Sequence record: NC_049943.1
DNA: 57,248 bases
Direction: 5' to 3' (one strand)
Source: Enterobacteria phage 2851
Position numbers: made by a program. Shown piece by piece: positions 1-3,000 of this stretch. Position 1 is the stretch's first letter, and every line of letters begins with the position of its first letter.

Positions 1-3000
1 CGTAATCGTGAAAGAGGAAGGTAGGTTGCTTATCTGTGTCTGTCATTGTCTAGCATTGTCCAATGTAGTTAATTAACTGTCTGTTATAACTCGAAAAACA
101 ACCCTTTTTTCACCTGAGTATGTCTACGAACGTCAAATATAGTTGTTTACTGTGCGCTGTTGTCCATGTGATATTGTGTACCAGATGTGTACCAAACCAT
201 TATTTCTGAGCGTACCAAATATTATTTATGGCTATAAGCGACACAAAACTGCGTACTATTTATGGTAAACCATATTCTGGCCCACAAGAAGTGGCTGATG
301 CCGATGGCCTCAGCGTACGAATTTCACCGAAGGGGGTCATCCAGTTCCAGTACCGCTATCGCTGGCATGGCAAGCCTAATCGACTTGGGCTTGGTCGATA
401 CCCATCCCTGTCTTTGAAGGATGCCAGACAGATCACTGCTGACTTGCGAAAGCTCTATTTCTCAGGAACGGATCCACGCACTTATTTTGAAGAGAAGGTG
501 GAGAACTCCATGACGGTCGCCCAGTGTCTCGACTACTGGTTCGACAACTACGTCTCTACAACTCTCAGAGAAAAGACCCAAGCACTTTACCGATCAACGG
601 TTATGAAGCGCATGCATGACGCCTTCCCTAATCGTCCGGCATCTTCTATCACGGTTAAGCAATGGGTTGACCTGCTTACCGAAGAAGAAAAAGATAATCC
701 ACGCCGAGCAAGGCAGGTGCTAAGTCAACTAAGATCAGCAATTAGTTGGTGCATGCGGCGTCAGTTGATAGATAGTTGCGCAATTATGAGCATCCAACCA
801 AGGGACTTCGGCTCCCGCGCTGAGGTAGGGGATCGGGTACTGTCGTATCACGAACTGGCTAAGATCTGGCTTGCTATTGAAAGAAGCCGTGCGTCTACGT
901 CAAATAAGCTCCTTCATCAGATGCTTATGCTGTGGGGGGCGAGGCTCTCAGAGCTTAGGCTGGCAACAAAGACAGAATTTGACCTGCTGGACAACGTATG
1001 GACCGTACCGAAAGAGCATAGCAAGATGGGTAATGTTATCCGCCGTCCAATCTTCGATCAAATTAAGCCTTTTCTCGAAAAGGCCATGACAACGTACAAT
1101 GATGTTCTTTTCCCTGGAGAAGACATAAACAAACCGATCAGCATCGCTGCAGCTAACCGATTTTTAAATAGAATAAGGGGAGGGATGGATCTAGGTTACT
1201 GGCGAACACATGATTTCAGAAGAACGCTTGTTACACGTCTGTCCGAGATGAATGTCGAGCCTCATGTTACTGAGCGAATGCTCGGTCATGAACTTGGCGG
1301 GATAATGTCCGTATACAATAAACACGACTGGATAGAGGCTCAGCGCAAAGCGTATGAGCTTCACGCTGATAAATTGTTCTGGCACATCAGGAGCATTTCT
1401 GATTAACGCCACCGTTAAGAATCCACCCTTCAACAGCTTCACGAAGGTATGATTTGGGGTGGGTTCTGACTGGCTTCGGAAATCCGTGCCGTTTGGTATA
1501 GTTCCAGATTGTCTGACGTGATGAAACACCGAGCTTGTTCATCACTTCTTTCTCAGGAATCAGGCTGGTATCGGTCATCTTAATTCTCCAGGCAAAAAGA
1601 AACCGCCATATAGCGGCTCTATCAGATATGAACAGGCCTCATCGAGTGTGAGGCGTTAGTCCTTGCGTAGCTCGCTGATTCTTCTGTAAGTCTCTGGTGC
1701 TTTGTTTCCGTGTATCTTCATTTCAGACTTCAACAGAGCAACGAGGGAATCCCATTCGTTGAGGATTCCTTTGAATGCCGGAACGCGCTTTGCAACCTTG
1801 TCGAATGAATCTCTGATTTCTGGAATCTGCTCAACAAGTGCAACGCATCGTCTGAAATCGGCTGCGTCATGTGGAGCACCGAAGCCATGACCATAGATAT
1901 TCTTTTTCAGGCCACATGCGATTGAGGCAAGAGTTGCGCTACTGATGCCGACATCGCCAGTTGATTGCCATTTCAAAACCTTCATAGCCAAATCTGACAT
2001 TTCTTGTCTCCATAAAACAAAACTCGCCGTAGCGAGTTCAGATAAAAGAAATCCCCGCGAGTGCGAGGATTGTTAGTTGCGCTCTGCTGCTGCCTTAGCC
2101 ATTACCATATCCACACAATTTCACCAGACATGATTCTCGCAATCACTATCATCACCAAAGTGATAATCACAACTTTAACTGGCGGCATCATTCACCATCC
2201 TGCTGCGGTGCTGCTGGATATACTTTTCTCATCCAATGCGTGGCGTCATGAATAACGAACTGATATTCATCATCAGTAAACATCGAGCCATCCCACTGTA
2301 GCCCGTCAAGAACACCTCTGGATGGAGAGAATACCCAGATATCGAAATCGTATTTCTCCGGCATTCGCTCACTACAGCTTATCCAACCATCCGGAGTTAC
2401 CGGAGAGTTGCCAGCCTTGCGCATGGCAATCTCCATGATTTCAACCATATCTCCTGGTGGAATTTTACAATGCTGACCAATATGCCTCTGCTGCCTGGCA
2501 TATTCGAGGATGTGCTCCAGCTTGATACGATTAATCATGATTTATCTCCCTGAAGCATGGCTTCGCGGCAGTCGTTCCAGCCTTCAGCATAATCACTATA
2601 CGCAAGAGGCCAACCGTTTCTGTATTCACGCGGCAACTTATCAGGCACTACCAGCGCTGGCGGCGCGGAGAATAGTGGTTTAGGTGATATTTCCGCACGT
2701 TTTGCGTATGCTTCAACTGTGTCAGGGTTAAACAGGATTATGTTTTCACCGCATTCTCACGCTATCGGTTCTGCTTCCAGCGATGCCAGTGCAATTTCAT
2801 AAGCACGGCGCTCAATATTGTCTCGAACGTCCAAGCTGCCTATGCGCTCTTTGATTTCTTTAATCAGTTCTTTGTCGGTAATAGTGGTCATGCCGCGTTT
2901 CCTTCTTTCTTATTAACAATTACACCGTCATATATTTCATTAAGGTGCCCTCTCAACTCCATGCGCCTTAATGCAGACAACATGTAATCGCATTCACTTA

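Follow-up and report, generated by a model that had tools for sequence, protein, structure and literature searches.

Attachment-site cores, predicted arm-type integrase sites and a phage-borne sbcB start in the Stx-converting prophage 2851

The subject of this report is the recombination module of Enterobacteria phage 2851, as it appears in the sequence record NC_049943.1. The whole stretch of 57,248 nucleotides was analysed and will be called the window; positions refer to it, and labels beginning with L denote other sequences that were compared with it. The same 13-bp sequence, CGTAATCGTGAAA, stands at the two ends of the window, and next to its left copy lies int, the gene of a tyrosine integrase (Int), which is transcribed away from this core. 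Int contains the domains PF13356 (Arm-DNA-bind_3, residues 4–85, E 8.2e-18) and PF00589 (Phage_integrase, E 1e-16) and is 99.7% identical to the integrase of phage 1717, so that it is the cognate integrase that adjoins the core. Converging on int is a small open reading frame (ORF) for a putative excisionase (Xis). This ORF has no Pfam match at E ≤ 1e-3, and its counterparts in related records are annotated as AlpA family or HTH_17; an Xis-like gene is kept beside int in most of the relatives. Between the left core and int there are three copies of an octanucleotide GTACCA(A/G)A, an array of short units phased at 10 bp, and a short stretch that codes for the beginning of the host protein SbcB. 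Two further copies of the octanucleotide precede the right core. In what follows, the int-proximal arm at the left end of the window is named P′, and the distal arm at the right end is named P. The coordinates of all these features are collected in Table 1.

Table 1. Features of the recombination module of phage 2851, and the internal motif pair discussed with them, in window coordinates.
Feature	Position	Strand	Remarks
attL core copy, CGTAATCGTGAAA	1–13		identical 13 bp annotated in NC_011357; host sbcB directly to the left in L001
phage-borne substitute sbcB 5′ end	1–46	-	ATG at 46–44, codons MTDTDKQPTFLFHDY into the core; in-frame fusion to host sbcB
phased array	122–166	+	five (t)GTNNN units (GTCTA, GTCAA, GTTGT, GTGCG, GTCCA) at a spacing of exactly 10 bp; ends 16 bp before the first predicted arm repeat
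predicted arm site P′1, GTACCAGA	178–185	+	GTAC (178–181) invariant in 17 diverged sequences
predicted arm site P′2, GTACCAAA	189–196	+	11 bp after P′1; GTAC (189–192) invariant in 17 diverged sequences
predicted arm site P′3, GTACCAAA	212–219	+	23 bp after P′2 and 9 nt before the int ATG; GTAC (212–215) invariant
int	228–1406	+	ORF; 392-residue tyrosine integrase, transcribed away from the core
putative excisionase (Xis)	1387–1578	-	63-residue AlpA-like helix-turn-helix ORF; converges on int and overlaps its 3′ end
internal pair TGTACCAGA (9222–9230) and ATATTGTGTACC (9252–9263)	9222–9263	+	judged not to be part of the att system
predicted arm site P1, GTACCAAA	57162–57169	+	74 bp before the core; cognate variant at the same position in L075 and SEN34
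predicted arm site P2, GTACCAAA	57174–57181	+	62 bp before the core, 12 bp after P1
attR core copy, CGTAATCGTGAAA	57236–57248		right of the core in L002: orphaned native sbcB 5′ end (MMNDGKQQSTFLFHDY), then dacD

The initial annotation had noticed the 13-nt string at both ends and taken the two copies for the attL and attR cores of an integrated prophage, and on both points it was right. There are exactly two copies of CGTAATCGTGAAA in the window, both on the same strand, and none of 100 shuffled sequences gave two or more matches, even with one mismatch allowed. The reverse complement of the core codes for the residues F-H-D-Y-(E) of SbcB. In the record NC_011357, which includes the host flanks, these 13 bp are annotated at either end of the prophage as a “duplication due to insertion of stx2c phage”. 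The initial annotation had proposed that the flanks be inspected for an interrupted target gene, and they turn out to be the two halves of sbcB: the body of the gene lies to the left of attL, and to the right of attR come the native sbcB start (MMNDGKQQSTFLFHDY) and then dacD. The empty site, as seen in L011, has a single core (at 1801 of that sequence) within an uninterrupted sbcB, and there sbcB and dacD are contiguous. The phage partner of this site is seen in the free phage mEp234, where the right end of the window, a single core and the left end of the window follow one another without interruption in the middle of the genome, at a site annotated as “attP type 2851 ... sbcB”. The free phages Sf101 and SEN34 likewise have one contiguous attP with a single core, which in SEN34 is identical to that of the window. 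When attP and attB are compared, they have exactly 13 uninterrupted bp in common. The tyrosine integrase of the phage would recombine the two inside codons 12–16 of sbcB, the gene of exonuclease I (ExoI), and would duplicate the core in doing so. The published work agrees with this arrangement: CGTAATCGTGAAA is quoted as the attP of phage 2851 in the paper on Sf101, integration at this core is reported for both phages, and the attL junction of Sf101 in sbcB was verified by polymerase chain reaction (PMC4159516).

It is worth pointing out that, from the window alone, a circular or terminally redundant phage record that had been linearised with a 13-nt overlap would look just the same, as the initial annotation had itself remarked. 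Such an artefact is excluded, as near to certainty as a comparison of this kind can bring us, because the ends in NC_011357 are flanked by both halves of sbcB and because mEp234, Sf101 and SEN34 hold one core in mid-genome that joins the right and left ends of the window. In addition, the attL junction is present in 582 of 5,426 complete Escherichia coli genomes, where it lies in the chromosome.

The window is an integrated lambdoid Shiga toxin (Stx)-converting prophage of the 2851/1717 type, and it ends exactly at the published 13-bp core. Both of its ends are 99–100% identical to those of other Stx-converting lambdoid prophages, namely phage 1717 (NC_011357/FJ188381), Stx2a_F349, WGPS4, WGPS6 and WGPS8. 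The F349 phage and the WGPS4, WGPS6 and WGPS8 phages were located in sbcB by Ogura et al. (PMC4645166). The attachment-site interpretation is correct, yet both the literature and GenBank annotation have it already. The core is the published sbcB site of medically relevant Stx2c, Stx2a, Stx1a and serotype-converting phages, and its confirmation here fixes the identity and the boundaries of the element only.

What happens to sbcB itself deserves a closer look. Read on the minus strand, attL gives MTDTDKQPTFLFHDYETFG and what follows it, in frame with the host sbcB. A surrogate start codon, with about 11 codons that lead into the core, is provided by the P′ arm. The Prokaryotic Genome Annotation Pipeline (PGAP) accordingly lists an intact sbcB of 474 residues (422–1846 in L010) that starts 46 nt inside the prophage, as compared with 475 residues at the empty site. 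This arrangement was followed through a comparison set of 30 genomic loci with relatives of Int (40–99% identity), to which several diverged free-phage attPs were added. In 24 of the 30, from Escherichia to Photobacterium and Parendozoicomonas, sbcB stands divergent from int at the same distance; an open frame runs across the junction at 26 lysogen loci, with an ATG, GTG or TTG placed 11–13 codons before HDYE; and the miniature sbcB 5′ end is also present in three free-phage attPs (mEp234, L075 and SEN34). The substitute start is conserved from Enterobacterales to Vibrionaceae and Endozoicomonadaceae. Integration thus swaps the 5′ end and the upstream region of sbcB and does not destroy the gene: the reading frame is there to be read, and its expression would be expected to follow. 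The residues encoded by the core, F-H-D-Y-E, are those of what we take to be motif I of the DEDDh catalytic center of ExoI, which would account for the conservation of attB from one genus to another. The literature speaks of a “disruption” of sbcB (PMC8309913). Strains recorded as “sbcB-occupied” should not be taken as sbcB mutants, since the phage supplies a new 5′ end that makes the ORF complete again. In the literature and annotations on this group, with Strauch 2008 outside the scope of the search, no description of either the substitute sbcB 5′ end or the arm-type sites was found.

The second element of the module is the set of GTACCA(A/G)A repeats. The initial annotation had described them as a pair of motifs just inside each end; the motifs are real and the right end does have two, but the left end has three. 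All five are direct repeats on the plus strand, are unlike the core, and are found on both arms. The four copies of GTACCAAA are the only ones in the whole 57 kb, and none is further than about 220 bp from an end. Across the window there are 10 occurrences of GTACCARA, against an expectation of 2.4.

The close relatives of phage 2851 are about 98% identical in the arms and therefore uninformative, so the diverged members of the comparison set were used instead. As long as Int identity is about 50% or more, nearly every locus has its three direct repeats at about −50, −39 and −16 from the int ATG, with spacings of 11 and 23 bp. The repeat itself varies by lineage: it is GTACCA in some, GTACA in most, and GCGTCCAAA in one relative of 48% identity. 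An alignment of the region from the core to int in 17 sequences, with a mean identity of 65%, has 29 invariant columns, and 12 of these are exactly the three GTAC tetranucleotides. Nearly all of the 29 fall into two sets, one in the core region that codes for sbcB, and the other made up of the three GTACs with conserved flanking bases. The P arm behaves in the same way. Its pair of repeats stands 62–75 bp before the core in the diverged contiguous attPs of L075 (72% Int identity) and SEN34 (61%), in the midst of DNA that otherwise cannot be aligned. Even in phage 86 (56%) and the Proteus phage Brookers (55%), which have a different core, the pair is kept at −296/−284 from the int ATG, as compared with −301/−289 in the window, although the second copy is degenerate (GTACT). 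In ENT39118 (49%) the pair is found at about −280/−268, and the P′ triplet is looser. In each of these five diverged attPs, the same variant of the motif is present in both arms.

Based on these comparisons, the repeats are predicted to be the arm-type sites of a heterobivalent integrase, as the initial annotation had proposed, and we consider this reading probable. It is favored because the number, position and orientation of the repeats are conserved, because the five sites change together, and because Int has an Arm-DNA-bind_3 domain. This N-terminal domain would most likely be what binds the five repeats, and the arm sites would then let Int bridge the arms and the core within an intasome, following the lambda paradigm. 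Some observations weigh against the reading. A scan of attP for the consensus of integration host factor (IHF) gave no convincing site, and a scan of positions 1–400 for the sigma-70 consensus on both strands gave no promoter. Int and Xis were also searched for columns that sort the loci into those with GTACCA and those with GTACA, and the best column of Int (residue 39, which immediately precedes the FQYRYRW strand in the arm-binding domain) does so with 95% accuracy, below the 97% reached by the best column of Xis (position 23, in the helix-turn-helix), accuracies that are not corrected for phylogeny.

This last result bears on an alternative in which the GTAC(C)A repeats are not arm sites of Int at all, and are bound by the AlpA-like excisionase or by some other protein that regulates the int promoter. 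Besides the slightly better tracking of the repeat variant by Xis, it can be said for this alternative that the P′ triplet keeps a fixed distance from the int ATG, as an operator would, and that direct repeats about one helical turn apart (11–12 bp) are described as typical of recombination directionality factors (RDFs) (PMC7498355). The arrangement in the window is nevertheless a different one, with the same motif on both arms, far from the core, and in a 2+3 layout. Such a layout over two arms is the hallmark of Int arm sites in lambda, HK022 and P22, while the sites of RDFs are usually on one arm. The dedicated arm-binding domain of Int would also need sites of this kind, and the 10-bp phased GTYCA array beside P′1, being separate from the repeats, is a better candidate for the RDF sites. 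Moreover, no AlpA-like gene was found within 1.5 kb at L030, L032, L037 and L040, and two of these loci, L030 and L032, keep the triplet all the same. Binding by the excisionase thus appears improbable to us, though it could be the binder, and Int remains the preferred reader of the repeats.

Two further loci, L016 and L075, had at first sight the appearance of lacking xis as well, and were rejected as such cases: the gene is present at both, displaced by about 850 bp. Between int and xis these loci contain an ORF of 281 residues (2684–3529 in both) with a lipoprotein-like N-terminus, which looks like a cargo (“moron”) gene within the recombination module. Another observation concerns L077, where the triplet at −50/−39/−16 upstream of int is a mixed one, GTACAC, GTACCA and GTACAG. 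Position 5 of the repeat may therefore tolerate either C or A, which weakens a strict model of a specificity switch.

The phased array adjoins P′1 and overlaps the presumed promoter region of int. The phasing at a period of 10 is not peculiar to the window: summed over 23 loci it amounts to 79, compared with 37.4 ± 2.8 in shuffled sequences. The consensus of the units again depends on the lineage, being GTYCA in most, (A/T)TCCT in Tatumella and Rosenbergiella, and GTACA in SEN34 and L020. The array is a possible candidate for a set of excisionase-binding sites, of bending sites, or of weak Int sites. Directly after it, TGtGATATT at 167–175 was noted by eye as a possible extended −10 element. 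The layout of the genes, with int pointing away from the core and the arm repeats placed before its ATG, fits a promoter that is overlapped by arm sites. The three P′ sites would lie between the probable int promoter and the int ATG, and Int probably represses its own gene too, by analogy with the integrase IntS of the prophage KplE1, which will be considered below.

The substitute sbcB start lies within the same divergent interval of about 180 bp as the presumed int promoter, the predicted arm sites and the phased array. One may go further and suppose that integration rewires sbcB: with the start, the first 11 codons or so, and the whole upstream region all being phage DNA, the supply of ExoI could come to depend on the occupancy of the interval by Int and Xis, and could change on induction. 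We offer this as a tentative idea that is more apt to be wrong than right. A consensus promoter scan of the native sbcB upstream region gave no match, as was the case for the phage arm. If the idea were true, the lysogens affected would make up about 11% of the complete E. coli genomes, together with relatives out to Vibrionaceae and Endozoicomonadaceae, and control of the gene by the phage could then have consequences for recombination or for defence against phages. SbcB has recently been implicated in the control of a reverse-transcriptase defence system (bioRxiv 10.64898/2026.04.29.721553). That phage DNA with predicted Int and Xis sites takes the place of the 5′ end and the upstream DNA of sbcB throughout a clade is the only thread of this analysis that is mildly novel.

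We turn now from the ends of the prophage to its interior. The initial annotation had reported that a 12-mer and a 9-mer of the left arm recur together at about 9215–9256, next to the rex-position gene, and had presented them as an echo of the arm-type-like motif. Both strings do exist, with a true span of 9222–9263; a relation to the integrase did not survive the comparison. The pair lies in a spacer (9176–9348) between the rex-position gene (9349–9870, minus strand) and an ORF of 40 codons (9053–9175, minus strand). This spacer belongs to an immunity region of the VT2-Sakai type, in which, according to the annotation of AP000422, the operators map to 8811–8885 and the pRM terminator maps to 9019–9047. 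The OL operators and the pRM terminator are both left of the motifs, which fall in the spacer and outside these mapped elements, and the notion that the internal copy is itself an OL operator or a terminator was rejected for this reason. A scan for promoters and terminators found nothing at the motifs.

In principle the pair TGTACCAGA/ATATTGTGTACC might be a functional extra binding site for Int, for example one that couples the integrase to the expression of the immunity region. The 12-mer takes in sequence upstream of P′1, a 9-mer identical to P′1 is found 30 bp away from it, and the combination of a 12-mer and a nearby 9-mer arose in only 5% of simulations, which is somewhat unusual. The spacer is also conserved (96% identity in the Salmonella phage Oslo) and may have a function of its own that is not linked to int. 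These two points speak against a mere coincidence. The distribution of the pair, on the other hand, does not follow the integrase. A stretch of 511 bp with both motifs recurs at 100% identity in VT2-Sakai, in Nil2, in phages of the PA series and in an Stx1 phage; VT2-Sakai has both motifs unchanged, yet its 444-residue integrase is unrelated (best blastp E 0.02), and no core was found in the first 12 kb of its record, which was the part examined. Conversely, mEp234 and Sf101, which have this Int and this attP together with another immunity region, have no internal copy, so that the pair is not co-inherited with the integrase module. Its geometry is also unlike that of arm sites, since the motifs are 30 bp apart and not 11–12 bp, and the second copy is only GTACCTTA, without the A(A/G)A tail. 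Phage Oslo has one substitution within the 12-mer, which tells little about the motifs because the whole spacer is equally conserved there. Finally, when the left arm (216 nt) is compared with the remainder of the window, chance gives 1.3 common 12-mers per simulation, and such a 12-mer is present in 63% of the simulations. A second, unrelated 12-mer, TTTTTTCACCTG, is in fact common to the left arm (105–116) and a region near cI (10186–10197), which shows that such matches between arm and interior arise by chance. An extra Int site in the immunity region is thus very improbable. The internal copy is not linked to int, given that it travels with the immunity module whichever integrase is present and that it is near chance expectation, and by this comparison of sequences it is very probably a coincidence.

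Other copies of TGTACCAGA are found at 27450, 42247 and 55165, and a related GGTACCAGA is found at 47700. The five copies of the 9-mer, all on the plus strand, might suggest a family of sites throughout the genome. This was rejected: the other internal copies encode x-Tyr-Gln in open plus-strand frames of unrelated genes, their occurrence is driven by codons, and 74 different 9-mers reach at least 5 copies on the plus strand of the window. It may be added that the spacer at 9176–9348 holds an imperfect hairpin, GGGCTCC-TTTT-GGAGGCTC, at 9272–9292, which is possibly a terminator or a small regulatory element of the immunity region.

Taken as one picture, the ends of a prophage in sbcB, predicted arm sites on both arms, a surrogate sbcB start and a coincidental internal copy make up an account that we hold with good confidence. 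The arm-type reading within it would be an ordinary further case of a known kind, well supported by comparison. Its result can be looked at as a map of the recombination module, with five predicted arm sites, a phased array and an Int/Xis pair. The integrase clade is widespread, with members that target sbcB or argW in Escherichia, Shigella, Salmonella, Klebsiella, Proteus, Pantoea and others, and the map could be of help in calling prophage boundaries and in the design of integration vectors.

It remains to set the module beside the systems that are already known. The nearest are the other members of the 2851 group, whose attP/attB in sbcB (phages 1717, Sf101, mEp234, HK544 and HK140) has the identical 13-bp core and the same host target as the window. 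Their integrases are 98–99.7% identical to this one, the core lies 227 nt upstream of int, and nothing material differs. The classical reference is the attP of lambda, which is ordered P1, P2, core, P′1, P′2, P′3, and whose arm-type sites are bound by the N-terminal domain of Int. The module of phage 2851 is like it in having a tyrosine integrase with an arm-binding N-terminal domain, predicted here to be heterobivalent, and in having 2+3 repeats distinct from the core. There are also clear differences. The arm-binding domain here is PF13356, of the P4 type; all five repeats are direct; the arm with three sites is the far one, at a distance of 177–211 bp; transcription of int leads away from the core, and would start at a promoter inside the arm; and attP here has given no IHF consensus.

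A closer analogue in its layout is the IntS/TorI system of KplE1 (CPS-53) at argW, in which the arm sites overlap the int promoter and both Int and the RDF repress int (PMC2951348). As in that prophage, int abuts attL and is transcribed away from it, and the intergenic length of about 220 bp matches the “autoregulated” class of the same study (PMC2951348). The likeness does not extend to the sequences. IntS is only 21% identical to the present Int (E 2e-12), its arm is without the GTAC(C)A triplet, and KplE1 was therefore rejected as a homologous characterised system and kept as an analogue only. Its target, moreover, is the 3′ end of a tRNA gene, while here it is the 5′ end of a protein gene that is divergent from int. 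A tRNA gene is also met among the relatives of the present integrase: in the Stx2 phage 86 (L128, about −225 to −200 from the int ATG) and in the Proteus phage Brookers (L130), the core position holds the first 24 nt of the tRNA gene argW in reverse complement (GTCCTCTTAGTTAAATGGATATAA). In the group with Int of 56% identity, which includes phage 86 and the argW-type Stx2a phages, it may again be the 5′ end of the target gene that is exchanged.

The last comparison is with the prophages that reconstitute the gene they enter. Phage 21 and e14 in icd, and the phages that target tRNA genes, carry a duplicate of the gene end that they displace and so leave the target intact. Phage 2851 likewise keeps its target whole, with the difference that here it is the 5′ end of the gene, with its start codon and its upstream region, that becomes phage DNA.

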